From Candidatus Zhuqueibacterota bacterium (GTDB lineage Bacteria > Zhuqueibacterota > Zhuqueibacteria > Residuimicrobiales > Krinioviventaceae), in NCBI GenBank assembly GCA_016934825.1, contig JAFGSB010000158.1:66842-130841 (forward strand): 64,000 bases of DNA. Reading direction: 5' to 3'. Position 1 is the first letter of the stretch. Every line of letters starts with the position of its first letter. Below the pieces are notes generated by a model. The model was not told where the DNA came from, searched no databases, and saw only the letters and a list, made by a program, of their open reading frames with translations. Shown here in pieces: positions 8,453 through 56,761 of this stretch. The position numbers were made by a program, and so were the translations under genes.

Positions 8453-8464
8453 TTGTTGGAGAAA

Positions 8465-9370
8465 ATGAAAATACTGGTTACAGGTTGTTACGGTTTATTG
8501 GGACAAACGGTTTGTGAACGTGCTCCAAAATCTTTTCTAGTTTACGGAGTTGATATACATGAGGGAAATATCGTTTTACCGGATGATAAATATTTTTCTC
8601 TTGATCTGACAGATCGAAAAAAAACTCTGGAATTATTGCAGGATTTAAAGCCGGATTATATTATCAATTCCGCCGCGTACACCGATGTTGACGGCGCGGA
8701 AACGGAACGGGAATTGTGTTGGAAAATCAATGTTGATCTTGTGGAAAATTTAATTTATGGCGCCCGTAAGATTAAAGCCGGAATCGGCCACATATCAACA
8801 GATTATATCTTTGATGGAAAATCAGGTCCTTATGCGGAAGACGCGCATCCCAATCCGATAGGATATTACGGGCGTTCCAAACTTGCCGCGGAGAATGCTT
8901 TGATTGGATCATCGGTGGATTATTTTATAGCCCGTACCATGGTCCTTTACGGAATGTCAAAGAACGGTAAAACCAATTTTGTCACCTGGCTCATCGCCCA
9001 GTTGACAAATCAACGACCGGTCAAGATAGTAAATGATCAATACGGAAATACGACCCTTGCGGATGAACTGGCCGAGGGTATTTGGACATTAATAAAAAGT
9101 GGTTATTCAGGAATTTTAAATATTGCCGGCCGGGAAATCATCAACCGTTATGAATTCGCCGTCAGAATTGCGGAGGTTTTTGGATTCGACAGGGATTTGA
9201 TAACAGCCGTAACCACCGCTGAATTCAACCAACCCGCACCAAGACCGTTAAATTCCGGCCTGATTGTTGACAAGGCTCTTAACGAGTTAAATATTGTGTT
9301 AAGCGATGTTGTTGAAGGATTACATAAATTTAAATCAATTTATTATTCGGGATCACTGGTGCCCGGTTGA
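8465..9370 (+). CDS. rfbD: dTDP-4-dehydrorhamnose reductase (RfbD family)
   Basis: MKILVTGCYGLLGQ Rossmann motif, SAAYTDVD and YGRSK catalytic region. Confidence 0.8.
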   Translation: MKILVTGCYGLLGQTVCERAPKSFLVYGVDIHEGNIVLPDDKYFSLDLTDRKKTLELLQDLKPDYIINSAAYTDVDGAETERELCWKINVDLVENLIYGARKIKAGIGHISTDYIFDGKSGPYAEDAHPNPIGYYGRSKLAAENALIGSSVDYFIARTMVLYGMSKNGKTNFVTWLIAQLTNQRPVKIVNDQYGNTTLADELAEGIWTLIKSGYSGILNIAGREIINRYEFAVRIAEVFGFDRDLITAVTTAEFNQPAPRPLNSGLIVDKALNELNIVLSDVVEGLHKFKSIYYSGSLVPG

Positions 9371-9602
9371 CGGAAACCTTAAGCAGAAATTAAGTTTTTT
9401 AAAAAATGAATCGATAAAATATAGGAGTTCATTTACTTAATAAGACAGGAAACAATATAATATCAGAAAATTTGAATAATTTGATGTTTAGGGTATTGTG
9501 TTCGGTATCAGCCGGCTACAAGTACTCCGATGAATAAAATTTTTTTCGTCCCGTAACGGTTAAAAGGAAAAACCTGTAAACACATAAATAGCGGAGCGGC
9601 CT

Positions 9603-16277: not shown

Positions 16278-16329
16278 TTTTTGAGTATAATTAAGACACA
16301 TACGAATCACTTGCAATAGAACCGGCTAT

Positions 16330-16730: not shown

Positions 16731-16827
16731 TGGGTTATTTGGATGAAATTTTACAAAATAATGGAAATTTATTATTAGGTTCAGATTGTCTAATTACTGT
16801 GCGTACAAACCAGACAAAACGCAAATT

Positions 16828-16930
16828 CTGTCATTTCGACCGCAGGGAGAAATCTTATTATGTTTTACATGAACTGATACCTCTTTAGGAAACAAGAATT
16901 TTCTTCGCTATGCTCATCGTAATGACGGAG
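16828..16930. repeat. Second full copy of the MITE-like inverted-repeat element
   Basis: About 90% identical to 16628-16730 across roughly 100 bp, including both arms. Confidence 0.65.
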
Positions 16931-33584: not shown

Positions 33585-33765
33585 TGTTTTTCTCCAAATG
33601 TCTTAATAATGTAATCTTTGTTCTTTAATAAATTTTTTACTGCTTTTTTGTTTTTTGGAAATCAATTTTTCATTTAAACCATTTATTTCAATATTTTATT
33701 TCAAAAATAATATAAACTGTTTGCAAAATTAAGAAAAAATGACTATAATATCCTGAATATAGTTG

Positions 33766-33940
33766 AATAGAGGCGCCTTTTGCAAGAGTAAACACATCAA
33801 AGGATAAGCGTATCTGTTAAAGATGTGTTAAAAGGGCAACAGGCCGAAATAGTTCCGATACGCTTTAAGGAGCTATTGGGACGGTATGTGAACAACTACC
33901 GTACTGTCACGGAAAAAAATCCGTGGAGCGCTATTTATTA
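33766..33940 (+). ncRNA. Lysine riboswitch (L-box) aptamer
   Basis: Starts with AGAGGCGCC (P1 5' strand). Conserved AAAGGGCAACAGGCCGAA core and 3' ACUGUCACGGAAAAAAAUCCGUGGAGCGCUAU, paralleling the B. subtilis lysC leader (GCUGUCAAGAAA...UUGGAGGGCUAU). A T-run follows at 34003-34012; lysine genes lie downstream. Confidence 0.7.
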
Positions 33941-34031
33941 AACATGCTGATTAATAGAAAAACAGTAGGTTGATTGAAAAGGGCGCCCCGATTCTTTCGA
34001 CCTTTTTTTTTGTTTATTTCGTTTGTTAATT

Positions 34032-35027: not shown

Positions 35028-36419
35028 ATGGTAGTAATGAAATTTGGCGGTACTTCGGTAGCGGACGCCGCGGCCATGCGCAGAGTGGCGGAAATTGTGA
35101 AAACAAGAATAGATAAAAAACCCATAGTCGTTGTATCCGCGGTTGGCGGCCTGACTGATAATCTGGTTGCATTGAGCAAAGAAGCTAAAAACCGGAATAT
35201 GACAAAGGTTCAGGAAGTTGTAAATGTTGTTACGGAAAGGCATTTAAAAATAGTAAGGGACCTTGGTCTGGATAAAAATGGTTCACTGGTAAATGTTGTC
35301 ACCGAAACCGCCGAACAACTAAAAAAGGTATGTACAACAATCTCTGAGGCGGAGTCGATGCAAAAAGCCCTGGTGGATGAACTTTTAAGCACCGGGGAGT
35401 ATCTCTCTTCCCATATTATGGCTGCTTACCTTGATTCTGTCGGTATGAACGGTGTGTGGGCGGACGCGCGGGAGATACTGGTGACGGATTCCGTTTACGG
35501 CAGCGCCAAACCCAATATCGGAGAATCAACTGAAAAGGCAAAAGCGAAATTACTGCCGCTGGTTTCCGATAATAAAGTACCGGTTATTCAGGGATTTATC
35601 GGCCGGGACAAAAACGGGAAAATTACCACCCTCGGCCGGGGCGGTTCCGATTATACCGCTTCACTGATCGGCGCCATGCTTGATATGGAAGCGGTGGAAA
35701 TCTGGTCCGATGTCAGCGGGGTATTAACGGCCGATCCGTCTCTGGTGCCGGAAGCAAAGAGAATTCTGCTCATGAGTTTTCAGGAAGCGGCCGAACTGGC
35801 ATATTTTGGCGCCAAAGTTCTGCACCCGGCAACGATGCATCCGGCTGTTGACAAAGGTATTCCCATTTACGTATTAAATTCGATTTATCCGGAACAGGGG
35901 GGGACAAAGATCGCTCTGTCTTCCGATATTGCGGAAGACAAAATTTGCGTTGTGAAATCAATTGCCTATAAAGAAGGATTGACAGTTGTTACCGTTAACA
36001 GTACCAGAATGTTGATGGCGCATGGTTTTATGGCATCGATATTTCAGATTTTTGAAAAGTACAATACTTCCGTCGACCTTGTGGCCACATCGGAGGTGAG
36101 CGTATCGGTCACGATTGATAATACGGAACATCTTGAAGAGATCAAAAAGGAAATCAGCGCTTTTGCCACCGTAGGCGTTGTGAGTAACAAGGCGATTGTC
36201 TGTCTGGTCGGCCAGCACCTGAAACGCACCAGCGGTATGCCGGCAAGGATTTTTGGCCTGCTCGGCGATGTGCGCATCCATTTGATCTCACAGGGCGCTT
36301 CTGAAATTAATATCAGTTTTGTGATTGACGAAGTGGACTTGAAACGTGTCATTCAGCGGTTGCACGATCATTTTTTCGGCAACTCTTATGACGTGGAAAT
36401 TTTTGCTGAAAATAATTAA
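35028..36419 (+). CDS. lysC: Aspartate kinase
   Basis: VVMKFGGTSVADA N-terminal kinase motif; two C-terminal ACT domains. Confidence 0.9.
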   Translation: MVVMKFGGTSVADAAAMRRVAEIVKTRIDKKPIVVVSAVGGLTDNLVALSKEAKNRNMTKVQEVVNVVTERHLKIVRDLGLDKNGSLVNVVTETAEQLKKVCTTISEAESMQKALVDELLSTGEYLSSHIMAAYLDSVGMNGVWADAREILVTDSVYGSAKPNIGESTEKAKAKLLPLVSDNKVPVIQGFIGRDKNGKITTLGRGGSDYTASLIGAMLDMEAVEIWSDVSGVLTADPSLVPEAKRILLMSFQEAAELAYFGAKVLHPATMHPAVDKGIPIYVLNSIYPEQGGTKIALSSDIAEDKICVVKSIAYKEGLTVVTVNSTRMLMAHGFMASIFQIFEKYNTSVDLVATSEVSVSVTIDNTEHLEEIKKEISAFATVGVVSNKAIVCLVGQHLKRTSGMPARIFGLLGDVRIHLISQGASEINISFVIDEVDLKRVIQRLHDHFFGNSYDVEIFAENN

Positions 36420-36424
36420 TTTAT

Positions 36425-36608
36425 AACGCCAGTGTTCGGTTAAATCCGAACACGCCACTCTAAACATATTATATTATTAAAATTATCAGATATGAAATCA
36501 TTATTTGACTTTTATGTAAAATTTGAATTGTTTTAATTACATTAATTGATTTTATTAAACTAATAAACCGGATCAGGCAGCGGTGTCCGGTTAACGGACA
36601 CCGCTGAA
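36425..36608 (+). repeat. About 190-bp hairpin-terminated intergenic repeat, copy A
   Basis: 5' CGCCAGTGTTCGGTTAAATCCGAACACGCCACTCTAAACATATTA ... 3' CCGGATCAGGCAGCGGTGTCCGGTTAACGGACACCGCTG. Homologous along its length to copies at 41836 and 49876. Confidence 0.7.
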
Positions 36609-36625
36609 TTTATAAGGATATTTTT

Positions 36626-40422: not shown

Positions 40423-41739
40423 ATGTTATTGTCCGGCTACGGAAAGGTAACCGATATAATTATTATTGATGCGGCGAAACGGTACGGAACACCTTTTTAC
40501 TTATATGATGAGAGTTTGATCGTGGAAAAAGGCAATACGGTGCTATCCATGCCGAACGCTTATGGTTTAAATGTCAGCTATGCCATGAAGGCAAATTCCA
40601 ATAAAGCCATATTACAGCTTTTACATAAACTGGGCTTCAGGATTGACGCGAGCTCTTTGAATGAAGCGCGGCGCGCCCACTTTGCCGGCTTTCCATTGAA
40701 CAGGATCATGCTAACGACCCAGGAAATTCCATTAAATAAAGACCGCCGGGATCTTGAACAGATGATGCTGCAGGGACTGAAATATAATGTTTGTTCCCTG
40801 CGGCAGCTGCATCTGATCGCAGAGTTTGCCTCGAAACATCATATCAATCTGGCCATGCGCGTGCACCCGGGTGTAGGGACCGGGGAATCCGTCACAAGAA
40901 ACACCGGCGATAAATATTCCTGTTTTGGCGTGCATCTGACGGATATCGAAAAAGCCCTGCAATATGCTTCAACTATGGGTTTGAAATTTGATCTTGTACA
41001 TACACATATCGGGTCCGGTGGCAGTCCGGTTGAATGGCGTAATAATATTGAAAGGGAATTGAGTTTTGTGGAAAAATATTTCCCCGACGCGACAACCGTC
41101 AATTTCGGCGGCGGCTTTAAAGAAGCCCGTATGCCGGATGAAACGGCGTCGGATATTCATGATCTGGGTTTATACGCCAAACAACGGTTTGAGGATTTTT
41201 ATAAAAGGACCGGGCGCAAACTGACAATGGAAGTGGAACCCGGTACATTTATCGTCGCCAATGCGGGCTATATTGTATCGACGGTGCTTGACATCAAACA
41301 AACCGGTCCGGACGGGTTTGAATTTTTAATTCTCGATGGCGGGATGGAAGCCAACGTCAGGCCCCTGTTGTACGGGTCCAGGCATCCGTTTTATATCGTA
41401 TCCAAACAGGGGCAATTGCTGTCATCCGAATTTGATTTGAACGGCTTTGATTCGGAAAAAGATTTGCGCGTTATTGTGGGGCGCTGCTGTGAAAGCGGGG
41501 ACTCGCAGTGTCTCGACGCAAATGGTAACATTGTACCACGTGTGATGGCCAAACCGGAAACCGGTGATTATGTTGTAATTGGCGGGACCGGCGCCTACTG
41601 TTCATCCATGTCGCCATATAATTATAATTCCTATATTCAGGCCCCGGAAATATTATTGCGGACAAACGGGGAGTTGCAGATCATCAGGAAACCGCAGACC
41701 CTGGAACAAATGATCAAAAATGAAATGTCCCTGGATTAA
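40423..41739 (+). CDS. lysA: Diaminopimelate decarboxylase
   Basis: Fold-III PLP decarboxylase with YAMKAN PLP-lysine motif, GGG and CESGD motifs. Confidence 0.85.
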   Translation: MLLSGYGKVTDIIIIDAAKRYGTPFYLYDESLIVEKGNTVLSMPNAYGLNVSYAMKANSNKAILQLLHKLGFRIDASSLNEARRAHFAGFPLNRIMLTTQEIPLNKDRRDLEQMMLQGLKYNVCSLRQLHLIAEFASKHHINLAMRVHPGVGTGESVTRNTGDKYSCFGVHLTDIEKALQYASTMGLKFDLVHTHIGSGGSPVEWRNNIERELSFVEKYFPDATTVNFGGGFKEARMPDETASDIHDLGLYAKQRFEDFYKRTGRKLTMEVEPGTFIVANAGYIVSTVLDIKQTGPDGFEFLILDGGMEANVRPLLYGSRHPFYIVSKQGQLLSSEFDLNGFDSEKDLRVIVGRCCESGDSQCLDANGNIVPRVMAKPETGDYVVIGGTGAYCSSMSPYNYNSYIQAPEILLRTNGELQIIRKPQTLEQMIKNEMSLD

Positions 41740-41754
41740 TATTGAACTGATCTT

Positions 41755-41783
41755 GGAAAAGCCCTTTTAAAGGGCTTTTTTAC
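41755..41783 (+). terminator. Rho-independent terminator of the lysine operon
   Basis: GAAAAGCCCTTTTAAAGGGCTTTTTTAC: perfect 7-bp GC-containing stem, 5-nt loop, then a U-run. Confidence 0.8.
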
Positions 41784-41835
41784 TTTATGATCCTTTATAA
41801 AAGGTTTGACATGAGAGTTTGAATTAATTATATTT

Positions 41836-42033
41836 AGCCTGACACCAGTGTCCGGTAAACCCCGGACGCGACACTCTTAACATATTTATATATTAACGTA
41901 TTCTGATATAATATCATTTATTGATTTGTTTGAGAAAAATAAATTTTTATAATTATTTAACCTGATTTTATTTAAATTGTAAGCCGTATCAGGGAGCAGT
42001 GTCCGTGAACCGGACACCAGTGTTAGCCTGAGT
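41836..42033 (+). repeat. About 190-bp hairpin-terminated intergenic repeat, copy B
   Basis: 5' AGCCTGACACCAGTGTCCGGTAAACCCCGGACGCGACACTCTTAACATATT ... 3' CCGTATCAGGGAGCAGTGTCCGTGAACCGGACACCAGTGTTAGCCTGA. Confidence 0.7.
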
Positions 42034-42053
42034 AAAATAAAAAAAAGAGAATT

Positions 42054-43112
42054 ATGAAAGTTAAAGATTATCAACGCGCCCCGCTCTTCAATGATATACG
42101 GCTTGGAATAGTATTGATTATTATTCTTGTCTTTAGTTTTACTTTTTATCTTATCCGTGTTCCTTCCGGTATCGGATTTGCCATATCGGCTTTTTTGGCC
42201 CTCATTTTATTTATTTCCCCGTTTATTTTATTGGCCAATCCAACCCTAATTAAAATTCTGCGTAAAGATATTGAAACCCATCCGATACATGTATGGATTC
42301 TGCCGTCATTTTTGTTCGTTGTTTTATTAATCTACGCATTCATAACAGGACATGCTGACGGTCCGGGTATTTTAAAAGGTTTCCTTTATTGTTTCGTTCC
42401 TTTTTTACTGTTTATGCTTTTGAAAAACAGTTCGCCGGTATTGACAATTCCTGATGTTATCCTTGTCCTGGTTTTGTGGCTTCCGGTTGAATTCGGATTC
42501 GTACCCGACCTTGGTATCCCGCACGTGCAATCCGTTATCAACGTGTATTTATTGATCGGTTTGAATATTATATTATATGTTTACCTGGTTATGCGTCAAT
42601 TACCCGATATGGGTTATACTTTCAGATTAAAGGATCATGAATGGCGGACCGCTGTCATGAATTTTTTAATCCTATTGGTGATAGCAATACCGGTCGGGCT
42701 GCTCACTCATTTTATCGTTTTTTCCCGGACTATGCCCTCTTTTGGGGAAATGATACAAAAATTACTGTTTATTTGTTTTTTTGTCGCCCTGCCGGAGGAA
42801 ATATTGTTCCGCGGGGTCATCCTCAATTTAATTGAAAAACAATTGGGCGGGGTAAAAAAAGCGGGTACGATCGCCATGTTGATATCATCCGTTTTATACG
42901 GACTGGCGCACGGTAACAATTCAAGTCCTCCTTTTATCGATTTATCGCCTGGATCGTTGGGAACCTGGCATGTACCATGGGCTTTTATGCTGCTGGCAAC
43001 GATAGCCGGTGTCTTTTACGGTTTGACCTATATAAAGACCCGTAAGATTTTTGCCGCTGTAATAGTCCATTTGTTCATTAACTGGAGCTGGTTTGTTTTT
43101 TTCAGCGGTTAA
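42054..43112 (+). CDS. CPBP-family (CAAX/Abi) intramembrane metalloprotease
   Basis: EEILFRG motif 1, LYGLAH motif 2 and a C-terminal His motif; 8 to 9 TM helices. Confidence 0.7.
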   Translation: MKVKDYQRAPLFNDIRLGIVLIIILVFSFTFYLIRVPSGIGFAISAFLALILFISPFILLANPTLIKILRKDIETHPIHVWILPSFLFVVLLIYAFITGHADGPGILKGFLYCFVPFLLFMLLKNSSPVLTIPDVILVLVLWLPVEFGFVPDLGIPHVQSVINVYLLIGLNIILYVYLVMRQLPDMGYTFRLKDHEWRTAVMNFLILLVIAIPVGLLTHFIVFSRTMPSFGEMIQKLLFICFFVALPEEILFRGVILNLIEKQLGGVKKAGTIAMLISSVLYGLAHGNNSSPPFIDLSPGSLGTWHVPWAFMLLATIAGVFYGLTYIKTRKIFAAVIVHLFINWSWFVFFSG

Positions 43113-43270
43113 AACCGGTTCAACTCATAATTACAAACTAAATTGATCCATTTTATCTTTCAGCACAAAAGCAAAGTGGATGATACGACTGTTGATATGA
43201 AAATAAAATTGTTACAGGTATAATAAACGATATAAAATATTACATACAGGAAAAAGTTCGGGACAGCAAT

Positions 43271-44533
43271 ATGAAAAAAGATAAACCCAGGATCATGGTA
43301 TTCGGAATCGGCTCGTTTGCCGCTTCCGCCATGCGGGTGTTCGCGGAAGACGGCGCCGAGGTTTTTTGTTATTTGACCCGCGAATACGGCCATTATGGTC
43401 CATCACAGGAAGGTAAGACCTTTTATTATAAAGACATACCCAATCCCTGTGACATATTAAAAAAATTAAAAATCGATATGGTGTTTCCGATGTCCATCAA
43501 CTGGCACCAGGAAGAATGGACGGAGGAATTTTTACAAACGGGTATCCCGGTGTTTTCCCCGGTTCATGACGCCATGCTGTTGGAACGGGACAGGGATTTT
43601 GCCAGAAAACTATGTAAAAAGTACGGTATACCGTTTCCCCAGTCCCACGTCGCCAAAAATCGGCTTGAAGCGCTGGCTTATGTGAACGCGCATCCCAAAC
43701 CCTATGTCATTAAAAATCCGTTGTGTCGGCCCGGCAGTCCCGTGCATACAATCGTTACGGAAACCGTTCAGGACACAAAAAGCTGGCTGGAAAATGTGAA
43801 TTACGCCGAAGGTGTTTTTTTACAGGAATATATGGGCCGCAGGGAAGCGGGCCATATTGCTTTCATCAGCAACGGTGAAATATATTCGGTGGTGACCAAC
43901 CAGGAATATAAATGGTCCTTTGACGGCAACATGGGCCCGGTTGCCGGAGCGCCTTTGGGCGGACTGGTGGAAGTAGATCCCGGAGATAAATACGGGCTTG
44001 CCAGGGAACTCATTCACCCATTGCTGCCCTGGTTCAGGGAAACGAATTTTAACGGCCCTGTACAGGTTACCGCGGCCAAACGTGACAGCAAATGGTATGT
44101 GCTGGAATACAATGTGCGCACCGGTGTTACGGCCGGTCTGCCGTTGTTACGTATGCTGAAAAATCCGGTCAAAACGATTATGGATACGGCTGTGAACAAA
44201 AAAATCAATATAGATTATGTAAAAAGGAATGAATATGCCTGCGTGTTGACATTGGCTGGCTGGGGGTACCCCTATACCAAAATCACAGGTCCGTATTTGA
44301 CGGTACAGGTAAACGGTAAAACGGATTGTGATATCTGGTGGAATGAAGTGGAAGGCGGAGGGGGCGGACAAATGTTCATGTCCGGACACCGGATAGCGGA
44401 CGTTGCCGCCGTTTCGGATTCAATGGAAAAAGCCGTTCAGATCGCTTACAAAAATATAAAAAAGATATACTGCCTGAGCAGTTATTTTCGTCTTGATGTC
44501 GGTAAAAGTTTGTGGCCGCCCGGAAGTGATTAA
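43271..44533 (+). CDS. PurD-like ATP-grasp ligase (phosphoribosylamine-glycine-ligase homolog lacking the N-domain GGREHA motif)
   Basis: Collinear similarity to PurD N, ATP-grasp and C domains (e.g. VLEYNVRTG vs PurD VIEFNCRFGDPE). The invariant PurD GxGGREHA is replaced by GIGSFAASAM. Confidence 0.65.
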   Translation: MKKDKPRIMVFGIGSFAASAMRVFAEDGAEVFCYLTREYGHYGPSQEGKTFYYKDIPNPCDILKKLKIDMVFPMSINWHQEEWTEEFLQTGIPVFSPVHDAMLLERDRDFARKLCKKYGIPFPQSHVAKNRLEALAYVNAHPKPYVIKNPLCRPGSPVHTIVTETVQDTKSWLENVNYAEGVFLQEYMGRREAGHIAFISNGEIYSVVTNQEYKWSFDGNMGPVAGAPLGGLVEVDPGDKYGLARELIHPLLPWFRETNFNGPVQVTAAKRDSKWYVLEYNVRTGVTAGLPLLRMLKNPVKTIMDTAVNKKINIDYVKRNEYACVLTLAGWGYPYTKITGPYLTVQVNGKTDCDIWWNEVEGGGGGQMFMSGHRIADVAAVSDSMEKAVQIAYKNIKKIYCLSSYFRLDVGKSLWPPGSD

Positions 44534-44559
44534 ATAGAGAAAGAATTTAAACATACACA

Positions 44560-45351
44560 ATGAAAATCGTATTTTCGGAATATAAATCGGATTACGCAAA
44601 TTATATCTTCCCATATTCCATCTGGGCTTACCCGGAGGAGCATGAGACGCCTGCGGATTTATTTGACCGGGGCTTTTTACCCAATTCGCCCAACCTGGAC
44701 CGTTTTTACCTGTGCAGAAATGTTCGTGTTGATTTGGATCGATATGAACCTTCATCAGAGAACCGAAGGATTTTACGGAAAGGGGAGGGCATAGAACCGG
44801 GACTGGTGGAACGGCAGAATTTTGACTTTTCTCCGTCGTGGCGCGAGTTTTGTAAAAAGTACGCCGATGAAAAATTCGGCAAGGACGTGATGAGTTATGA
44901 CAGGCTCGACCGTATCATGAGCGCCCCAATCATTTCGCATGTGATGATATTTAAAGACCTAAAATCTCAAAAGGATATCGGTCTGGTGTTTTTATATATT
45001 GAAAAACCCCATGTTGCTTTTTATTATTATTCGTTCTATGATCTCAACTTTTTTCGGAACAGTCTTGGAATGTTTATGATGACGTCGGCAGTTGGAGAAA
45101 TGAAGAATAATGGTGTTCGGCATATTTATCTCGGATCGTGTTACAGCCGGAATGCCCTTTACAAAACCCAGTTCGAAGGCGTGGAATTTTTTAACGGGTT
45201 CAGATGGTCCGATAATATCAATGAATTAAAATACCTGATCGCCAGGGACTCCGATAAGGTGGACCATCATTTGCTTGAGTCCGACGATTTTACAAGCCGG
45301 TTTTATCCTGATGGAATTAATCCCGGAATACAGACCCGGCAAAACGATTAA
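44560..45351 (+). CDS. ATE/Bpt-family aminoacyl-tRNA-protein transferase-like protein
   Basis: VRVDLDRYEPSSENRRILRK matches the Bpt IRISVPDIELSRSQKRLLAK region; FYYYSFYD and HIYLGSCYSRNALYKTQF match the Bpt/ATE_C core. Confidence 0.6.
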   Translation: MKIVFSEYKSDYANYIFPYSIWAYPEEHETPADLFDRGFLPNSPNLDRFYLCRNVRVDLDRYEPSSENRRILRKGEGIEPGLVERQNFDFSPSWREFCKKYADEKFGKDVMSYDRLDRIMSAPIISHVMIFKDLKSQKDIGLVFLYIEKPHVAFYYYSFYDLNFFRNSLGMFMMTSAVGEMKNNGVRHIYLGSCYSRNALYKTQFEGVEFFNGFRWSDNINELKYLIARDSDKVDHHLLESDDFTSRFYPDGINPGIQTRQND

Positions 45352-45743
45352 ATTACCGGCAGGACAGGAAAACTGTTTTTTATATTACTCCTTCCACGGG
45401 TAAGAATATTAGTTAATTATTCACCATTCTCGTGAAGATATTTTATTTTATGTATTAGATTAAATTTTTATAAAATATATAGTATTTTTTTATACTTGAT
45501 TTTTTAATAAATCAGGATTATTTTATAAAGATTTATTATATATTATACAAATTTGATAAATTATATAAGTAAGGTTTTAACCGGCAATATCGTTAAAATT
45601 TTATTATAAAAGAAGCTGCTTAGGAACACACGAACCTCCCGCACAGGATTTTTATTCATCGACTTTAGGAACTCTGGAAAAAGACAGCTCACTCATTCAG
45701 GCTTTAAGTTCTTATTTGTTCATAAACAAATGGAATAAAAAAA

Positions 45744-47786
45744 TTGTTACCCGTAGTAACAACAATTGAAACAAAGTGTAAACGCTGTTATTCCTGTATA
45801 CGGAATTGTCCGGCAAAGGCGATAAAAGTCGAAAAAGGCCAGGCAATGGTCATAACCGAACGATGTATTGCCTGCGGTTATTGCGTCAAAGTGTGCCCGC
45901 AGAACGCCAAAAAAATACGTGATGATATTTTTCCCACCCTGAATTTATTATCTTCTAAAAGTCGAACAGTCGCCGTATTGGCGCCGTCTTTCCCGGCAGC
46001 TTTCCCGGATCTGGAACCCGGGAAAATTTTAACCGCGATACGGAAACTTGGATTCAGCCGCGTATATGACGTGGCGTATGGCGCTGATTTGATCAGTAAA
46101 GAATACAGGGAGTTATTGGACTCCAATATTATGCCGTTTATTATTTCCTCCCCCTGTCCCGCAGTTGTTAATTATATTGAAAAATACTATCCCATTTTGA
46201 CAATGTGTCTGGCCCCGATTGTATCTCCCATGATCGCTATCGGCAGGTACATCAGCAAATATATTAATCCTGATGCGTTTATTGTTTTTATCGGTCCCTG
46301 CATTGCAAAAAAGAAAGAAATGGGCGACCCGAAAGTCACAGATGTAATAAATCAGGTTTTGACTTTTGATGAATTGAAAGAGCTGTTTACGAAAAAAAAT
46401 ATACAACCCGGCAACGAATTACCGGGTGAATTTGACGGTCCGAATGCCCACCGCGGAAAACTGTTCCCGGTTTCCGGGGGATTGTTAAAAAGCGCCGAAT
46501 TAAATTATGATATTACGGATAATGATATCATTGTCACCGAGGGTAGGGATCGCGTTCTGGAGATTTTACAGAAAGCTTCCGAAGGTCAAATTGAGGCTAA
46601 GTTTTTGGACCTGCTTTTTTGTGAAGGATGTATCAACGGCCCGAAAATTGACAATAACCTTTCGGTGTTTGTAAAAAAAGACAAGGTGATTAATTATATT
46701 AACAGCCGGGTTGAAGAGGAAAAAGAATTTACCCTGGAAAATTTCGATTTAAGCGGGCTGGATCTTGGACGTAAATTTACCAATGAATATAAGGACGAGA
46801 AAATTCCGGATGAAAACGAAATAAAAGCAATACTGCAACTTACCGGAAAAAGTAATCCTGAAGATGAACTGAATTGCGGGGCCTGTGGTTATATATCCTG
46901 CCGTGAGAAAGCGATTGCCGTTTACCAGGGACTGGCCGAGGCTGAAATGTGCCTGCCCTATATGCTGGACAGACTGGAAAAAGTCCAAAATGAGCTGCAA
47001 AAGTCCAATATAGAACTAAAAGAATCCCTGGATACCCTGAAAAAGACCCAACAACAGCTTATTCAATCGGAAAGGCTGGCTTCAATTGGAGAATTGGCCG
47101 CGGGAGTGGCTCATGAATTGAACAATCCGTTAGGGGGAGTGCTAATTTTCAGCAGTCTGTTACTAGAACGAAAAAACATCAGCGATCCGGAATACAGGGA
47201 TTTGAAAAAAATTATTGAAGAGACCGAGCGCTGCAGGAAAATTGTGCACGGATTGTTGGACTTTTCCCGACAGTCCCGTTTGCAGGCCGCTATCGCCGAT
47301 CTAAACAAGATATTAATCAGCACCCTGACCCTGATTGAAAATCAGGTCCTGTTCCAAAATATAAAAATTGTCAGGGAACTGAATCCGGATATCCACAAAG
47401 TATTTGTTGATGTCGGCCAGATTCAGCAGATAGTATTAAATATTATTTTCAACGCGGCTGAAGCGATGGACGGAAAAGGTACGCTAATTGTAAAAACCGG
47501 TTTTTCCCCGGACAAAAAATTTGTACTTGCCAGCTTTAAAGATACCGGAACCGGAATATCGGCGGAACTGCTAAATAAAATTTTTGATCCTTTTTTTACG
47601 ACCAAACCCCCCGGCAAAGGTACAGGATTGGGCCTGTCAATATCTTACGGTATCATAAAAAAACACAAAGGCGATATTATTGTTGACAGCAAGCCGGGGA
47701 AAGGGACCACATTCACAATCAAATTGCCTTCCGCCCTGGTCATGCAGGATACATACCAATTGAATAATAAAATTGTACAAAAATAA
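45744..47786 (+). CDS. Sensory [FeFe]-hydrogenase-like (HydS-type H-cluster domain with two N-terminal 4Fe-4S clusters) fused to a histidine kinase
   Basis: 2x CxxCxxCxxxCP ferredoxin motifs; H-cluster motifs SSPCPAV (L1 variant), [10 protein letters not shown] (L2) and FCEGCINGP (L3). A coiled-coil is followed by the HisKA H-box [12 protein letters not shown] and HATPase_c N/G boxes (GTGLGLSI). TTG start. Confidence 0.8.
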
Positions 47787-47903
47787 AGTTCAATTTGTCA
47801 GTCATGTTTATGGATAAAAAATGGAATAGTTTATAACAGGATTCAATATCACATGCGTCCGGATAACGGACATCAAATATCCTGTATTCATAAAAGGATG
47901 ACA

Positions 47904-49861: not shown

Positions 49862-49875
49862 AAATAGATATGTAT

Positions 49876-50062
49876 AGCACTAGTGTCCGGTTAAACCCGG
49901 ACACGACATTCGTAACATATTATTTTATTAACGTTTTTGGATATGATTTCATTAATTGATATGGTTGAATAAAATTAAATTTTTCCAATTTTTAGCTTGA
50001 TTTTATTGAACTTGTAAACCGGATCAGGCAGCGGTGTCCGTTAACCGGACATCAGTGATGTT
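49876..50062 (+). repeat. About 190-bp hairpin-terminated intergenic repeat, copy C (inside the hydrogenase operon)
   Basis: 5' GCACTAGTGTCCGGTTAAACCCGGACACGACATTCGTAACATATTA ... 3' CCGGATCAGGCAGCGGTGTCCGTTAACCGGACATCAGTGATGTT. Confidence 0.7.
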
Positions 50063-50095
50063 ATAGTAGAATTTTTGAGGTAACAGGAGAAGATT

Positions 50096-50917
50096 ATGAA
50101 TAACCCGTATGAGGTCGTACCTGCCACGATATATGAAATTATTCAGGAATCTCCGTTAATTCGCACGTTACGTGTTCAACCGGAGAAACCCATACCGTTT
50201 AAAACCGGACAATTTATTGAACTGACCATACCCGGCATTGGCGAGGGTCCGTTTACTCCTTCATCATCACATTTCATCAGCGAAAATATGGATATTACCA
50301 TCATGAAAACCGGTTTTGTGACGGAATATGTTCACAGAGCTAAAGTCGGCGACAAAGTGGGTTTGAGGGGACCCTACGGTTCGCATTATCCGCTCGAAAA
50401 ATTCAAGGGTAAGGACCTTTTGATACTTGGCGGCGGCTGCGGACTCGCGCCGTTACGATCACTTTTTACGACCCTGCTGCATGAAGTGGAAGATTATAAC
50501 AGCATTACATTTTTCGCGGGAGCTAAAACGCCAAAGGATTGTATCTACAAGGATTCGGTGACGGATTGGAGAAAATATGACAATGTCACGTTTATGCGCA
50601 GTGTCGATGTTGTTCCCGATGGCGAAGAGTGGGACGAGGAAGTTGGGCTGGTTACTTCGCTGTTATCCAAACTGGATATTGATACGGCTGTAAATCCGGC
50701 GGTGGTTTGCGGACCGCCTGTTATGATGAAGTTTGGTACAATGGATTTGATCAAATGCGGTTTCCGGGAAGAAAATATATATCTGTCGATGGAAAAGAAA
50801 ATGTACTGCGGTTTCGGCCAATGCCGGCATTGCGTGATGGGCGAGTTTTATGCCTGCAAAGACGGCCCCGTGTTTACTTATGCCCGGATAAAGAATGAGG
50901 AGGATATTTGGGAATGA
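50096..50917 (+). CDS. AsrB/HydG-like FAD/NAD(P)-binding oxidoreductase subunit with C-terminal [2Fe-2S]
   Basis: FNR-like fold (GQFIEL, LILGGGCGLAPLRS) and CGFGQCRHCVMGEFYAC cluster as in PyrK/AsrB/sulfhydrogenase gamma. Confidence 0.8.
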   Translation: MNNPYEVVPATIYEIIQESPLIRTLRVQPEKPIPFKTGQFIELTIPGIGEGPFTPSSSHFISENMDITIMKTGFVTEYVHRAKVGDKVGLRGPYGSHYPLEKFKGKDLLILGGGCGLAPLRSLFTTLLHEVEDYNSITFFAGAKTPKDCIYKDSVTDWRKYDNVTFMRSVDVVPDGEEWDEEVGLVTSLLSKLDIDTAVNPAVVCGPPVMMKFGTMDLIKCGFREENIYLSMEKKMYCGFGQCRHCVMGEFYACKDGPVFTYARIKNEEDIWE

Positions 50918-51417
50918 AAAAACTTTTTATTGATGTTCCGGCCCTGATCAATTCCGGCGCAGCAGTCGATCAAATTAAATGCGAATATCTTTTTCACAGA
51001 AAAAATAACGGCGCTTTTTCCCTGCTGGAGGTGGCGCAATTTGCTTCATATTGCCGGCAGTGTACGGAATCGTTCTGCGTCTCGGCATGCCCGGTGGAAG
51101 CCCTGGAACGGCAGGAAACCGGAACCATCAAACGGCATAATATGCGATGTGTGGGGTGCAAAAGTTGTGTACTGGCCTGCCCGTTCGGAACGATTTTCCC
51201 CGAGGTCATTAATTATGTGACCTGTCAGTGCGATTTGTGTTTGAATCAGTTGGAGCAGGATCCTGACTATGTTCCGCTGTGTGTGAAAACCGCACCCGCT
51301 CAAACCTTTGCGATGAAAGAGTTAACGGAAGAAGACCCGCAGCAGCATATCTATTTTTCGGGTAAGCATCTGGCAATTAAAAGTCCGAACTGGCGGCACA
51401 AGGAGGGCAAGTCATGA
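50908..51417 (+). CDS. 4Fe-4S dicluster electron-transfer subunit (HycB/HyfA-like)
   Basis: CRQCTESFCVSACP and CVGCKSCVLACP plus a CDLC motif. Confidence 0.7.
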   Translation: MGMKKLFIDVPALINSGAAVDQIKCEYLFHRKNNGAFSLLEVAQFASYCRQCTESFCVSACPVEALERQETGTIKRHNMRCVGCKSCVLACPFGTIFPEVINYVTCQCDLCLNQLEQDPDYVPLCVKTAPAQTFAMKELTEEDPQQHIYFSGKHLAIKSPNWRHKEGKS

Positions 51418-52343
51418 ACATAGAATATGTGTTTTTCCTGCTCATTTTTCCCGGTCTGTTATTTACCGGTATTTTGGGACTGACCGTCGGCTGGGTTGAC
51501 CGGAAGGTCTCCGCGCGGTTCCAGTTTCGTGTCGGTCCGCCCTTTTTACAGAATTTTAATGATTTTTTCAAATTGCTTGGCAAAGAAACGATCATCGTCA
51601 AAGAAGGAGTACATTCATTATTTATTGCGGCTCCTTTTATCGCTTTTGCCGTGATCGTTCTGATTTCAACCATGATCGGCGTCGCTTTGTTCTTCAATAA
51701 AGGCTTCGGCGGCGACCTGTTTGTGATCATGTATTTGTTAATGGTTTATTCCGTTATGATCATATTAGGCGGATCGTCTACAGGAAACGTTTATTCCAGC
51801 ATTGGCGCCGCAAGAGAAATGAAACTGTTGCTGGCCGATGAACTGGCTTTTATATTTGTGTGTATGGTGCCCGTCGTTAAAGCGGATTACCAGTTGAGTC
51901 TTGAACAGATTTTGAACTGGCAAAGTATTGAAGGCGCTTTTATAGGTTCCGTATCCGGTGTGATCGCCTTTATTGTCGGTATCCTGTGTATCCAGGCAAA
52001 AATGACGCTGCCGCCGTTCCATATCCCGGAAGCGGAAACGGAACTCGTAGAGGGGCCATTTATGGAATACAGCGGGCCGCCGCTGGCTTTCTGGAAATTA
52101 AACCATTTTATGCTGTATGTTGTCCTGCCCTTTTTACTGGTGCTGTTATTTCTGGGCGGTTTCAATCTGCACGGTCTGGGTATACTTTGGGCCGTTTTAA
52201 AATATTTTTTGATTGTCGTGGTTATGATCATTATAAAAAATACCAATCCGAGGATCAGGATTGATACGGCATTAAATTTTTTCTGGAAATACGCCGCGCT
52301 GTTGGGTTTTATAGCTTTAATCTTAGCCGTGTTAGGAGTTTAA
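51414..52343 (+). CDS. Group 4 hydrogenase membrane subunit (NuoH/HycD/EchB family)
   Basis: 309-aa 8-TM protein with complex-I subunit-1 family signature regions. Confidence 0.75.
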   Translation: MNIEYVFFLLIFPGLLFTGILGLTVGWVDRKVSARFQFRVGPPFLQNFNDFFKLLGKETIIVKEGVHSLFIAAPFIAFAVIVLISTMIGVALFFNKGFGGDLFVIMYLLMVYSVMIILGGSSTGNVYSSIGAAREMKLLLADELAFIFVCMVPVVKADYQLSLEQILNWQSIEGAFIGSVSGVIAFIVGILCIQAKMTLPPFHIPEAETELVEGPFMEYSGPPLAFWKLNHFMLYVVLPFLLVLLFLGGFNLHGLGILWAVLKYFLIVVVMIIIKNTNPRIRIDTALNFFWKYAALLGFIALILAVLGV

Positions 52344-52344
52344 T

Positions 52345-52764
52345 ATGGGATGGTATAATAAAAGACTGGCAAAATCAATATGGGTGTTTCATCTAAGTGC
52401 GTCCCCGTGTAATAATTGTGATATCGAAATACTGGACCTGCTCACACCAAAATATGATCTGGAACGGTTCGGGATCAAGCTCGTGGGTTCTGTCAGGCAC
52501 GCGGATGTGATCCTGTTGAGCGGTATCATCAATCAAAAAGTCGCCCCCAAAGTTACACATTTATATTCGCAGGCGCCGAAACCTGTTTTTGTCGTCGGCG
52601 TGGGAACATGTCCTGCCGGCGGCTGTTGCTTTAACGACAGCTACAATAAAGTGCCCTGCCGAGAGGACGTCATTCCCATTGATATGTATATACCCGGTTG
52701 TCCGCCCAAACCGGAAGCCATGATCGAGGGCGTTGTAAAACTTGTGGAGGTTCTGAATGGATAA
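52345..52764 (+). CDS. [NiFe] hydrogenase small subunit (NuoB/HycG/EchC family)
   Basis: Cys ligands for the proximal cluster: CNNCD, GTCPAGGCCF and GCPPKPEA. Confidence 0.85.
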   Translation: MGWYNKRLAKSIWVFHLSASPCNNCDIEILDLLTPKYDLERFGIKLVGSVRHADVILLSGIINQKVAPKVTHLYSQAPKPVFVVGVGTCPAGGCCFNDSYNKVPCREDVIPIDMYIPGCPPKPEAMIEGVVKLVEVLNG

Positions 52765-53188
52765 AACCAAAGAATTCATCGAGGCTATGGGTGATAAAAT
52801 ATATAAAAAGATCGAGAAAAAAGGCCGCCTTTATTTCGAGGTGGATAATGAAAATTTACATACCGTGGTAGAGTATTTATTTCATAAAATGGGGTGCCGG
52901 TTATCCACGGCAACGGCGATGGAAATGTATCACGGCATAGAGGTGCTGTATCATTTTTCACACGACGAATCCGGCCAGTACTTTTGTCCGCGTATGGTCA
53001 TGACCGATCTGAAAAATCCGAAAATGAAATCGATTACGCCCATCATCAAAGGCGCGGAGTGGATTGAAAGGGAAATGTGTGAATTTTGGGGCATCGAATT
53101 TGAGGGCCATCCGCGTCCGGAACGGCTGCTGTCCAGAGAGCACCCCCAACAACTTGACAAACCATTACGATTCAGGAGGAATTCATGA
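52757..53188 (+). CDS. NuoC/EchD-like 30-kDa subunit
   Basis: NuoC-family fold; positioned between the NuoB-like and NuoD-like genes. Confidence 0.7.
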   Translation: MDKTKEFIEAMGDKIYKKIEKKGRLYFEVDNENLHTVVEYLFHKMGCRLSTATAMEMYHGIEVLYHFSHDESGQYFCPRMVMTDLKNPKMKSITPIIKGAEWIEREMCEFWGIEFEGHPRPERLLSREHPQQLDKPLRFRRNS

Positions 53189-54372
53189 ACAAGAATACCA
53201 TACCGGTTGGCCCATTCCATCCGTTGCTCGAAGAAGCCGAATATTTTAACCTGGTCGTTGATGGCGAAACCGTCGTTGATATTGATATTGATATCGGCTG
53301 GATGCACAGAGGGCACGAGTTTATCTCGGAACAAAAAACGTTTACCCAGTCCATTTATCTGGTGGAACGGATCTGCGGTATCTGTTCCACGTCACACCCG
53401 CTGGCATGCGTGCACGCGATAGAGGATGTCGATAATACCGAAATCCCATTGCGGGCGCGATATATCCGCACACTGATCGGAGAACTGGAACGCATTCACA
53501 GTCATCTGCTCTGGCTTGGCCTGGCAGGGCATTTTATCGGTTACGATACCCTGTGGATGTGGTCCTGGAAATACAGGGAGCCGGTTCTGCAAATGTTTGA
53601 GCTCATTTCCGGCAACCGCAATCATTACAACATGTTGAGAGTCGGGGGCGTCTCGAGGGATGTGGATCCAGAAAAAATTCCCGGCCTGACAGATGTATTG
53701 GATATGCTCGACAAAAAACTGATCATGATCGCCAAGGCCGCCAATGATGACCCGGTCCTCAGATCGCGATTGAAAGGAGTCGGCGTTTTAACCCATAAAG
53801 ACGCCCTCGATTATTGCGCTGTGGGTCCGACTTCCCGGGCATCCGGAGTCCCGGCGGATGTGCGCAAGTCCGAGGATATAGACGCATACAGCTTGGTCGA
53901 TTTTGATGTCATTGTGCTGGAAAACGGCGATGTCTATGATAAACTAATTGTCCGCGTGCTGGAAATGCTGGAATCCACAAAAATTTGCCGTCAATGTCTG
54001 GAAAAATTAAAAAAGGTAAAAGGTCCGATATTAAACAATGTGAAGAATATATCTGCAGGAGAAGGCATCGGCCGGTATGAAGCGCCGCGCGGCGAAGTGT
54101 TTCATTATGTACGGACCGACGGCACAAACAGGCCAATCCGGCACAAGGTTCGGGCCCCCAGCTATGTCAATATTCCCACTTACGCGGCGTCATGTGTGGG
54201 TCTGCCGATTGCCGATGTGCTCATCACAACTGCATCGGTCGATCCATGTTATTGTTGTACCGAACGCTCCCTGAAGGTCGTCAATAAAAATAAACAACCG
54301 TATCAAATAGACTTATTAAAGTTGTCCCGCGAAAAGACCGAACGGATCAGGAGGGAAACATATGGAGGTTAA
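53185..54372 (+). CDS. Group 4 [NiFe] hydrogenase large (catalytic) subunit (NuoD/EchE/MbhL-like)
   Basis: N-terminal RICGICSTSH (L1 CxxC) and C-terminal DPCYCCTER (L2 DPCxxCxxR) Ni-Fe ligand motifs. Confidence 0.85.
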   Translation: MNKNTIPVGPFHPLLEEAEYFNLVVDGETVVDIDIDIGWMHRGHEFISEQKTFTQSIYLVERICGICSTSHPLACVHAIEDVDNTEIPLRARYIRTLIGELERIHSHLLWLGLAGHFIGYDTLWMWSWKYREPVLQMFELISGNRNHYNMLRVGGVSRDVDPEKIPGLTDVLDMLDKKLIMIAKAANDDPVLRSRLKGVGVLTHKDALDYCAVGPTSRASGVPADVRKSEDIDAYSLVDFDVIVLENGDVYDKLIVRVLEMLESTKICRQCLEKLKKVKGPILNNVKNISAGEGIGRYEAPRGEVFHYVRTDGTNRPIRHKVRAPSYVNIPTYAASCVGLPIADVLITTASVDPCYCCTERSLKVVNKNKQPYQIDLLKLSREKTERIRRETYGG

Positions 54373-56182
54373 TGTTGTGCTGATTTATCTGGCCGCAATC
54401 CCCTTTGTGATTGCATTGTTGAATATTTTATTGCCGCCCGTTATGCAAAAAATTCTTACCCTGTTGGGTTTAATATATCTACTGCGGCTAACGGTACTCC
54501 TGTATTCCGGCGTGGCGGAAAATTTTATTTTGTTCGGGGAGACAGTATTTTCTGTTGACCGGTTGGGTCTGTTTGTGTTTACTTTTATCCAGGTTTTGAG
54601 TTTTATTATTTTCATATTTTCACTGCAGGGTCTGGATAAAAGAATCGAAAAAAAGTTTCTTATATTATATCCCATGACCGTTTCATTTTGCAACGGCGTC
54701 GTTTTGAGCGAACACGTCTTTAGTTTTTTGATTTTTTGGGGATTGTCGGGTCTGGCGCTGTATTTATTTTGCATGCTTGGGCTGACAAAAGGAACGCCGC
54801 AAACGGCAAAGAAAACTTTTATTTTAATCGGCGGGAGCGATGCTTTTTTAATTTTAGGAATGGTCAGTATCTGGTTTTTGAAACCGGGATCAAGCTGGTC
54901 GTTAATCGATCTGCACATACCGTTAACCGGTGAACTTTCTGTTGTCGCGTTTATCTGCCTGGTAATCGCTGCGTTTGCCAAAGCCGGGGGATTTCCGTTC
55001 CATACATGGGTTCCCGATTTCAGCCAGGACGCGCCCATTGAAAGTGCGGCATTCCTGCCGGCATCTTTGGATAAATTACTCGGCATTTATCTTTTGGCCC
55101 GGATAATGACGCAATTATTTGAGGTAACGGTCACCGTGAACCTTGTCATCATTACTCTTGGCGCGATGACGGTTATTTTTGCCGTCATGATGGCCATGAT
55201 ACAACACAGCGGCAGAAAACTGTTAGGGTACCACGCGGTCAGCCAGGTGGGGTATATGATCATGGGCGTCGGCAGCGGCGGCGCACTGGCGTTCGCGGGC
55301 GGGTTGTTCCATATGATCAATCATACAATTTATAAATCCAATCTGTTTTTAACGCTCGGCTCCGTGGAAAAACAGACCGGCACAAGCGACCTGGAGAACC
55401 TGGGCGGTCTGGGTAAAAAAATGCCGGTCACATTTATAATGGCCATGATCGGCGCGTTCGCCATATCCGGTATTCCACCGTTTAACGGATTTTTCTCCAA
55501 GTGGATGATTTATCAGGGTTTGCTTGAACTGGCCGGAAGTATGAGCAAGGTCCAGCAGGTATGGCTGCTTGTCTGTTTGATCCTGGCGGTTTTCGGCAGC
55601 GCGCTTACCCTGGCAAGTTTTTTGAAATTTTTACATTCGATCTATCTGGGAAAACGGCCTGCAAAGTATGATCATATAAAAGAAACAAAGCCCAATCAGT
55701 GGCTCTCAACCGGTTTGCTTTCCGCGCTATGTGTTGTATTTGGTTTGTTTGCGGTCAGTATTCCGTTAAAACGACTGATTTATCCCGTTACCATGGAATT
55801 GGGATATCCTTTACCCGACTTTTTGGGTGATTATAATCCGCAGTTGTTATTCCTGATGTTTGCCCTTGCATTTATTGCGGGATTCATTATTTACCTGTTT
55901 ACTAAAAATGTTCGTTACGACCAGAATTATCTCGGAGGTATGCCGGCCCTGGAAAAGTACAGGGTTGCCGGTACCGAATTTTATAATGAGATCCGCAACA
56001 TGAAACCTTTAAAAGCGATTTTCGACGCCGCCGGGAAAAAATATTTTGATATATATGATCTGGGAACCCGGTTTACTTTTTCGGTTTCCGGGCTCTTTCA
56101 ACGCGGCCATCCGGGACAGTTGCAGTTATATCTTTTATATATAATGGCGGGCGTTTTAATATTTATTTTGCTTGTTCATTAA
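54362..56182 (+). CDS. Antiporter-like membrane subunit (NuoL/MrpA/HyfB family)
   Basis: 606 aa, about 16 TM, proton-pumping complex-I ND5-family core. Confidence 0.8.
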   Translation: MEVNVVLIYLAAIPFVIALLNILLPPVMQKILTLLGLIYLLRLTVLLYSGVAENFILFGETVFSVDRLGLFVFTFIQVLSFIIFIFSLQGLDKRIEKKFLILYPMTVSFCNGVVLSEHVFSFLIFWGLSGLALYLFCMLGLTKGTPQTAKKTFILIGGSDAFLILGMVSIWFLKPGSSWSLIDLHIPLTGELSVVAFICLVIAAFAKAGGFPFHTWVPDFSQDAPIESAAFLPASLDKLLGIYLLARIMTQLFEVTVTVNLVIITLGAMTVIFAVMMAMIQHSGRKLLGYHAVSQVGYMIMGVGSGGALAFAGGLFHMINHTIYKSNLFLTLGSVEKQTGTSDLENLGGLGKKMPVTFIMAMIGAFAISGIPPFNGFFSKWMIYQGLLELAGSMSKVQQVWLLVCLILAVFGSALTLASFLKFLHSIYLGKRPAKYDHIKETKPNQWLSTGLLSALCVVFGLFAVSIPLKRLIYPVTMELGYPLPDFLGDYNPQLLFLMFALAFIAGFIIYLFTKNVRYDQNYLGGMPALEKYRVAGTEFYNEIRNMKPLKAIFDAAGKKYFDIYDLGTRFTFSVSGLFQRGHPGQLQLYLLYIMAGVLIFILLVH

Positions 56183-56216
56183 TTATAGATTCAATACGAA
56201 TAGAGCGGAGGAAATA

Positions 56217-56759
56217 ATGCCAATAGAAACCTGGTTAACGTTTGTTCTCGGGTTTATGATAATCGGATCGATCGTCGCGCTGGAATTGAAGGATATTTTG
56301 TCTTCGATCATCTCAATCGGGGTTGTCGGACTTGGGGTATCGGTCGCTTTTCTTTTTCTTCAGGCCCCGGATTTGGCGATTGTACAGTTCTTATTTGAGA
56401 TATTTGCGATTATCATTCTGGTCAAAGTCTTTATTAAAAAAGATTATCACTATGAAGAACCGTCAAGAATAAACAAAATGCTAATCGGTGTGACCGTTAT
56501 TACACTTGCCGTCATATTTATTTTCAGTATATCCGTGTTTAAAAATATACCGCCTTTTGGCGAGCCTTTACTGCATACGTCGAAATATTATCTTGAAAAT
56601 GGCGCCGGTGATACGGGAGCGGCAAACCTGGTCAGTTCCATTATTCTTGATTACAGGGCTTATGATACACTTGGAGAAGTAACGGTGTTATTTACCGCTA
56701 TTCTGGGTTCTGTAACGGTTCTACGATTGAGTATCCGAAAAAATAAAAATAAGGAATAA
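56217..56759 (+). CDS. MrpB/MnhB-like antiporter subunit
   Basis: VSSIILDYRAYDTLGE matches the MnhB motif. Confidence 0.7.
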   Translation: MPIETWLTFVLGFMIIGSIVALELKDILSSIISIGVVGLGVSVAFLFLQAPDLAIVQFLFEIFAIIILVKVFIKKDYHYEEPSRINKMLIGVTVITLAVIFIFSISVFKNIPPFGEPLLHTSKYYLENGAGDTGAANLVSSIILDYRAYDTLGEVTVLFTAILGSVTVLRLSIRKNKNKE

Positions 56760-56761
56760 AA

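Follow-up and report, generated by a model that had tools for sequence, protein, structure and literature searches.

A family of 180-bp MITE-like repeats with palindromic ends in an uncultured KSB1 bacterium

The hairpin-ended sequence at 41836-42033 of the window, i.e. of the whole 64,000-nt stretch of DNA analysed here, belongs to a dispersed repeat family that is very probably a MITE, a non-autonomous cut-and-paste or copy-and-paste DNA transposon without a gene of its own. This sequence had originally been described as one member of a family of hairpin-terminated repeats and interpreted as a mobile element, and both the description and the interpretation hold. Our reading is based on the demonstrated anatomy of the element, the duplications that bracket it, its empty and filled alleles, and its non-coding nature. 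Bacterial MITEs are small, AT-rich, non-coding elements with terminal inverted repeats and a target duplication of fixed length, which are present in several copies and mobilised in trans (PMC6382973, PMC10969869). The KSB1 element falls within the MITE size range (about 50-600 bp), has no coding capacity, ends in terminal inverted repeats and is AT-rich. Moreover, it is accompanied by a fixed 9-bp duplication, occurs in dispersed copies (four per 64 kb plus relics in the related contigs L006 and L034), and four empty sites with a single target were found. The family was previously undescribed and its host belongs to an uncultured phylum; the kind of element itself is well known.

A repeat search of the window revealed three gapless direct repeats of ~207 nt at positions 36419, 41835 and 49870, all on the plus strand, which we refer to as copies A, B and C. 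Their pairwise identity is 66-73%. Searching with a profile of these three copies detected a fourth, decayed copy D on the minus strand at ~9350-9522 (nhmmer E=9e-11 and 1e-8). Trimmed to the ends common to the copies, copy B proper comprises exactly 180 bp, and the same length was found for copies A and C and for the orthologue of copy B in L005, a contig of a related organism. The copies and their target-site duplications are located as follows:

36427..36606, plus strand: copy A, 180 bp, between lysC and dapB
36418-36426 and 36607-36615: duplication of copy A, perfect, 9 bp, AATTTATAA
41843..42022, plus strand: copy B, 180 bp, with the left inverted repeat and hairpin at ~41843-41869 and the right inverted repeat and hairpin at ~41996-42022
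41834..41842: left target-site duplication of copy B, TTAGCCTGA, its first base being the last T of the -10 hexamer
42023..42031: right target-site duplication of copy B, TTAGCCTGA, beyond which the CPBP gene (ATG at 42054) retains its original leader and ribosome-binding site
49878..50057, plus strand: copy C, 180 bp, between the Fer4_22 gene and the first gene of the group-4 hydrogenase/Mrp-like operon
49869-49877 (TATGTATAG) and 50058-50066 (ATGTTATAG): duplication of copy C, imperfect, 9 bp
9354..9522, minus strand: copy D, decayed, ~169 bp, in reverse orientation in the last codons of the RmlD-like gene
9344-9353 (TATTCGGGAT) and 9523-9531 (TACTCCGAT): remnants of the duplication of copy D

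The 9-bp direct repeats are perfect around copies A and B and around the orthologue of copy B in L005, and degraded around copies C and D. A chance origin of the two perfect 9-mers is negligible (~4^-9 each). The duplicated sequences differ from copy to copy (AATTTATAA, TTAGCCTGA, ATGTTATAG and TACTCCGAT), and that of copy A includes the final two bases of the lysC stop codon. The flanks of copy B, which had been taken for near-palindromic sequence, turned out to consist of the target-site duplication TTAGCCTGA, including the stretch AGCCTGA, together with the tips of the inverted repeats. The genomic contexts of the copies are functionally unrelated (lysine synthesis, CPBP protease cluster, hydrogenase operon and sugar-nucleotide genes) and the distance to the start codon ranges from 19 to 38 nt. 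Since four copies occur in 64 kb and one of them is reversed, the element has no fixed relation to the downstream gene. A Logan contig of run SRR13394437 was identical to the window over 5,926 bases. Extension past the window with short Logan contigs, by ~3.4 and ~4 kb, yielded no more copies.

All full copies open with CACYAGTGTCCGG and close with its near reverse complement, the element ends being CACCAGTGTCCGGTTAAACCCGGACAC. The terminal inverted repeats are imperfect. In copy B they read CACCAGTGTCCGG and CCGGACACCAGTG, and the inverted terminal 13 nt agree at 11 of 13 positions; across the full copies agreement amounts to 8-11 of the 13 and 19-23 of the 28 terminal nt, with indels in the loop. 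With up to two mismatches allowed, the 13-mer CACCAGTGTCCGG was found six times, compared to 0.57 occurrences expected, and none of 100 shuffled sequences reached this number. The octamer CACCAGTG, which forms the tip of the terminal inverted repeat, appears as a direct repeat because it is nearly self-complementary. Each end furthermore contains a palindrome of its own (GTGTCCGG-loop-CCGGACAC), the two palindromes lying ~150 bp apart, and this explains why the repeat had been recognised as hairpin-terminated. In every full copy, both ends fold into hairpins with stems of 7-12 bp. The GC content of the elements is 32-36% and drops to 15-21% in the 110-bp cores (16% in copy B), compared to 42% in the window. 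A six-frame check found stop codons in every frame of the four full copies (A, B, C and the L005 orthologue). A small protein encoded by the element, such as the product of a 62-aa ORF with a TTG start on the minus strand (41886-42074), was accordingly rejected, as no frame is open in all copies.

The original prediction had proposed a comparison of syntenic loci in related genomes, and had regarded presence of the element at all orthologous loci as the outcome that would contradict mobility. Syntenic contigs from related KSB1 organisms were reached through homologues of three window proteins. They include L005 (GCA_976565245.1), L006 (GCA_964458745.1) and L007/L008/L009 (JGI 3300028920, ENA ERZ27252253 and Logan SRR8554435, respectively). 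L005 represents the closest relative found, with a mean amino-acid identity of 92% over ten genes. Copy B is missing from the orthologous lysA-CPBP spacers of L006 and of L007/L008/L009, which represent two lineages. These empty alleles read TTGACA-17-TATATT-TAGCCTG(A/G), directly followed by the leader and the ATG; TTAGCCTGR occurs in them only once, at the very position at which it brackets the element in the window. The relatives without copy B keep the same operon and promoter. In L005 the site is filled: the element is inserted at the same place with TTAGCCTGA on both sides, comprises 180 bp, is 87% identical to the window copy and shares its orientation. Judged from these alleles, insertion B predates the split of the window organism and GCA_976565245.1 and postdates the split from GCA_964458745.1 and the JGI 3300028920 lineage.

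Empty alleles were likewise found for the other three copies. The 17-nt lysC-dapB spacer of L005 lacks copy A and contains one AATTTATAA; this site is filled in the window only. Copy C, also filled in the window only, is absent from four lineages (L024-26, L027/28, L034 and L035/36). Its spacer measures 234 nt in the window and 45 or 35 nt in the empty alleles, and subtraction of 189 bp (180+9) from the window spacer gives precisely the length of the 45-nt empty spacers. For copy D, the spacer of L031/L032 is 72 nt long and contains TACTCCGAT once, and L033 is filled. Hence, mobility and insertion into intergenic DNA, as initially proposed, are borne out by empty alleles at all four copies, each with a single target. 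At least two insertion ages are visible, since copy A is missing from the closest relative, in which copy B is present. Copy A is thus younger than copy B, insertions B and D are common to some relatives, and copy C has so far been found in the window organism only.

Copy B is located between the lysine operon and the CPBP/ATP-grasp/Bpt-like genes, next to two further signals:

41754..41782, plus strand: intrinsic terminator after lysA (40423-41739), 13-pair stem and T tail, upstream context outside the element
41806..41834, plus strand: sigma-70-like promoter of the CPBP/ATP-grasp/Bpt-like operon (TTGACA-17-TATATT), in agreement with the consensus at 11 of 12 positions in a promoter scan

That copy B follows a genuine lysA terminator, as originally stated, was thereby verified; this terminator is kept in L005 and L006. 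The promoter is near-invariant across an alignment of six orthologous loci, filled as well as empty, varying at three positions of the spacer, and by this alignment it is older than insertion B. The element had been assigned to the promoter region of the CPBP/ATP-grasp/Bpt-like genes. It does adjoin the promoter, but it is situated immediately downstream of the -10 hexamer and before the ribosome-binding site, i.e. in the presumptive 5'-UTR and not in the promoter itself. Both sites survive. The positions of these predicted signals place the entry point of element B at about the transcription start, between promoter and ribosome-binding site. As both are intact, copy B should be transcribed within the 5' leader of the operon, most likely as a 189-nt extension. 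The RNA fold predicted for copy B (-53.5 kcal/mol, z = -4.9) keeps the ribosome-binding site free of pairing, and the predicted folds of the copies in general are stronger than those of shuffled controls (z -2.9 to -6.1).

The genes downstream of copy B (42054-45351) form a conserved three-gene cluster, which is also found in L005, L006, L007 and L027. It encodes a CPBP/Rce1-like membrane protease (gene 42054-43112), a GARS-like ATP-grasp enzyme and a Bpt-like protein, for which a weak, below-cut-off match (E=2.5e-4) to PF04377, the arginyl-tRNA-protein transferase C-terminal domain, was obtained. The CPBP gene matches an NCBI protein assigned to candidate division KSB1 with 100% identity. In the more distant relatives L027/28 this cluster gains a GNAT acetyltransferase.

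The remaining copies occupy different settings. Copy A lies inside an operon that is headed by a lysine riboswitch at 33760-33941 (Rfam RF00168, 114 bits, E=9e-30), the sole Rfam hit of the window, and that includes genes for an M20 peptidase, lysC, dapB, dapA, dapF, an aminotransferase and lysA. Copy D entered an RmlD-like SDR gene (8453-9370) within its last three codons; the stop codon of this gene at 9368-9370 is inside the element. The L031 relative of this protein ends in ...KFKLMYYSD and the window protein in ...KFKSIYYSGSLVPG, in each case followed by the stop; according to this comparison of the deduced proteins, insertion of copy D rewrote the C-terminus. Copy C is positioned 5' of the group-4 [NiFe] hydrogenase/Mrp-like operon. 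A few kb upstream of this hydrogenase/Mrp-antiporter-like operon (50096-60193), a gene at 45744-47786 encodes a 680-aa protein in which a Fe-only-hydrogenase-like domain and Fe-S clusters are joined to a histidine kinase. This arrangement is kept in relatives, and the 680-aa protein may be a redox- or H2-sensing regulator of the group-4 hydrogenase operon.

Besides the four copies, the window contains a solo hairpin that closely resembles the right-end hairpin of the MITE and follows the pattern G[CT]GTCCGGAT[AT]ACGGACAT:

47846..47875, plus strand: possible right-end relic, solo hairpin GCGTCCGGATAACGGACATC, weak profile hit, located 5' of a small DRTGG-like gene

CAGTGTCCGGTTAACGGACATCA is retained in the orthologous region of L034 (503-570), which aligns to profile positions 106-177 with E=2e-4. 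The solo hairpin was also found in L005 (11407-11434) and is missing in L035. Based on these matches, it probably descends from an older insertion. In L006, a diverged relative of the element, shortened to ~115 bp and with the left end CACTCGTTTCCGGTTAAACCCGGACGCC, was observed at 4861-4975, downstream of the Bpt-like gene. The spacer between the Bpt-like and sensor-kinase genes of the window (45352-45743) contains no copy according to the profile search. Since the copies are only 66-73% alike, copy D has lost bases, and relics occur in L006 and in the window and L034, the family looks old, its copies here probably being no longer mobile.

A second repeat family, unrelated to the MITE, was noticed at 16204-16930 in a 1.1-kb gene-free stretch. 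It comprises two imperfectly palindromic units of ~115 nt (16616-16730 and 16816-16930) that are 87% alike and have the arms CTGTCATTTCGACCGCAGGGAGAAATCTT and ...CATCGAAATGACAG, a half unit (16242-16282), and short repeats at 16204/16577 and 16329/16413. This family gave no Rfam match at gathering score.

The 9-bp duplication of arbitrary target sequence points to a transposase making 9-bp staggered cuts. Among insertion sequences, such cutting is the work of DDE-type enzymes, and we infer that a transposase of this type acts in trans on the element. Encoded elsewhere in the genome, it would recognise the imperfect terminal inverted repeats of ~27 nt, each including a short palindrome, and join the element to a target cut with a 9-bp stagger. 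Repair of this stagger would then generate the 9-bp direct duplication at every copy.

A partner of this kind was sought at several levels. No transposase gene was present among the window ORFs examined, and in 200 kb of KSB1 sequence no pair of 14-nt ends (up to three mismatches) flanked a long insert as expected for a parent IS. A scan of a genome collection of species representatives with the right-hairpin pattern GCRGTGTCCGNNNNNCGGACAYCRSTG returned three hits in high-GC Actinobacteria or Thermomonas, which is about the number expected by chance. A metagenome scan with CCGNATCAGGNAGCRGTGTCCG resulted in 14 hits, none of them with the element: 12 fell into one conserved protein-coding gene of unrelated organisms and the other two into unrelated high-GC sequence. 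Comparison of the element to plasmids by blastn likewise gave nothing relevant.

A MITE by origin may acquire a function, and copy B, perhaps also copies A and C, could now be selected as an RNA-level feature of the transcript, i.e. as a stem-loop in the 5' leader or between cistrons with a role in mRNA stabilisation, processing or attenuation. Such RNA-level effects of stem-loops on mRNA have reportedly been shown for Correia and ERIC elements. We consider domestication of this kind unlikely. It is consistent with the location of copy B between an intact, conserved promoter and the ribosome-binding site, where transcription is expected, with its strong predicted fold (-53.5 kcal/mol, z = -4.9) that leaves this site free, and with the sense orientation of three of the four copies inside transcription units. 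However, this 3 to 1 split is not significant, neither a promoter nor a terminator is conserved across the copies, and relatives without the element keep operons and promoter, so that it is dispensable. Copies A, B, C and the L005 copy have kept the exact length of 180 bp despite ~30% divergence, and the left stem of copy A carries a fully compensated change (GTTCGG/CCGAAC versus GTCCGG/CCGGAC), both points in favour of domestication; yet substitutions between the B orthologues hit stems too, and in the L005 copy the left hairpin folds no better than shuffled sequence (z = 0.01) and the right stem has acquired a mismatch. Divergence between the B orthologues amounts to 12.8% (23 of 180 sites), compared to 25% at four-fold degenerate sites of ten flanking genes (n=1404). 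This gives a hint of constraint on copy B and nothing more, because four-fold sites serve poorly as a neutral standard, changing at 43% where they are A/T and at 15% where they are G/C, and other intergenic DNA is equally conserved in the same comparison (~88%). It is also rather improbable, in our estimation, that the element is the non-autonomous derivative of an uncatalogued, KSB1-specific IS family with palindromic ends and that at least copy B was co-opted as a structured 5' leader, a combination that would explain both the exact 180-bp length and the roughly two-fold slower divergence than at four-fold sites.

The other explanations deny either the mobility of the element or its mode of transposition. 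Three copies with the same orientation directly upstream of start codons, palindromes (GTGTCCGG...CCGGACAC) ~150 bp apart that can be read as operators, and folds stronger than shuffles (z -2.9 to -6.1) would suit an immobile, conserved cis-regulatory element, i.e. a shared RNA leader or operator pair co-regulating three downstream operons. We regard this as highly improbable, given the empty sites at all four positions in close relatives with intact flanking genes, the unrelated 9-bp direct repeats bracketing each copy, the reversed copy D inside the 3' end of a gene and the variable start-codon distance (19-38 nt). The AT-rich core is shared as well, which indicates common descent rather than convergence on a binding site. 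Concordantly, no curated cis-regulatory RNA family was recognised: the element gave no gathering-score match in Rfam, the best E-value obtained for it at permissive thresholds was 0.99, far below the gathering score, and orthologous leaders occur without the element. The hairpin at each end of every copy and the location of all full copies on one strand of the window are reminiscent of hairpin-dependent single-strand elements of the IS200/IS605-derived palindrome-associated or REP/BIME type, which are moved by a Y1 (HUH) transposase. This assignment is extremely improbable, since each copy has a 9-bp duplication of different sequence, the empty sites contain exactly one copy of each duplicated sequence, the two ends are mutually inverted repeats, and the scanned ORFs included no TnpA- or RAYT-like gene. 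Finally, size and layout of the repeat, with inverted repeats around an AT-rich segment directly upstream of operons, are like those of known invertons, in which a site-specific recombinase would flip a ~150-bp AT-rich promoter segment between the inverted repeats. Consensus scans detected internal promoter candidates in copy B, minus-strand candidates alone in copy A and none in copy C, so that an element-borne promoter was rejected as a feature of the family; the host promoter is outside the element. In addition, inversion explains neither the target duplications nor the empty sites, the two orthologous B copies have the same orientation, and no recombinase gene was seen nearby, and we therefore give an inverton next to no credence.

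Identification of the repeat as a MITE turns three conspicuous hairpin-ended repeats, which should not be annotated as riboswitch-like leaders, operators or terminators, into members of one transposon family. It provides a first defined mobile element with dated presence/absence alleles for this group of uncultured KSB1 bacteria. These alleles can be used as lineage markers, and the ends of the element offer a handle for finding the responsible transposase. The insertion points are tight: the gap between -10 box and ribosome-binding site (copy B), a 17-nt gap in a riboswitch-controlled lysine operon (copy A), and the last codons of a gene (copy D). They constitute small natural experiments on what such sites tolerate. 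General understanding is unchanged, since MITEs with such properties are well documented.

Among known elements, IS200/IS605-derived palindromic elements and REP sequences share with the KSB1 element the hairpins at or near the ends. They lack terminal inverted repeats, insert beside a short target of fixed sequence and do not duplicate it; membership of the KSB1 element in these groups is contradicted by its four different 9-bp duplications and its inverted-repeat ends. Correia elements are about 100-155 bp long, duplicate TA, and contain promoters of their own and an IHF site. The KSB1 element differs in its 9-bp duplication and in that no promoter is shared by its copies, and hence is not a Correia-type MITE. 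A closer counterpart is MITEAba12 of Acinetobacter, which is 113 bp long, has 16-bp inverted repeats matching its parent ISAba12 and was caught moving (PMC6382973). Both elements are small, AT-rich and non-coding, with imperfect terminal inverted repeats and 9-bp duplications; each genome harbours several copies, located within or adjacent to genes, and mobilisation in trans is presumed for both. In contrast to MITEAba12, the KSB1 element measures 180 bp and carries a palindrome in each end; the two have no sequence similarity, and the KSB1 host is uncultured. QMITE2 of Coxiella burnetii, with direct repeats of 7-9 bp, inverted repeats of 23-29 bp and a core of 113-145 bp, is predicted to form a long hairpin when transcribed (PMC10969869). 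By its published description, its layout is almost that of the KSB1 element, in an unrelated host. With respect to function, the Correia elements of Neisseria are MITEs located next to or inside transcription units, and one just downstream of the mtrCDE promoter changed expression (PMC10969869). The insertion at mtrCDE would be the closest functional parallel to copy B, which directly follows the -10 box of its operon.
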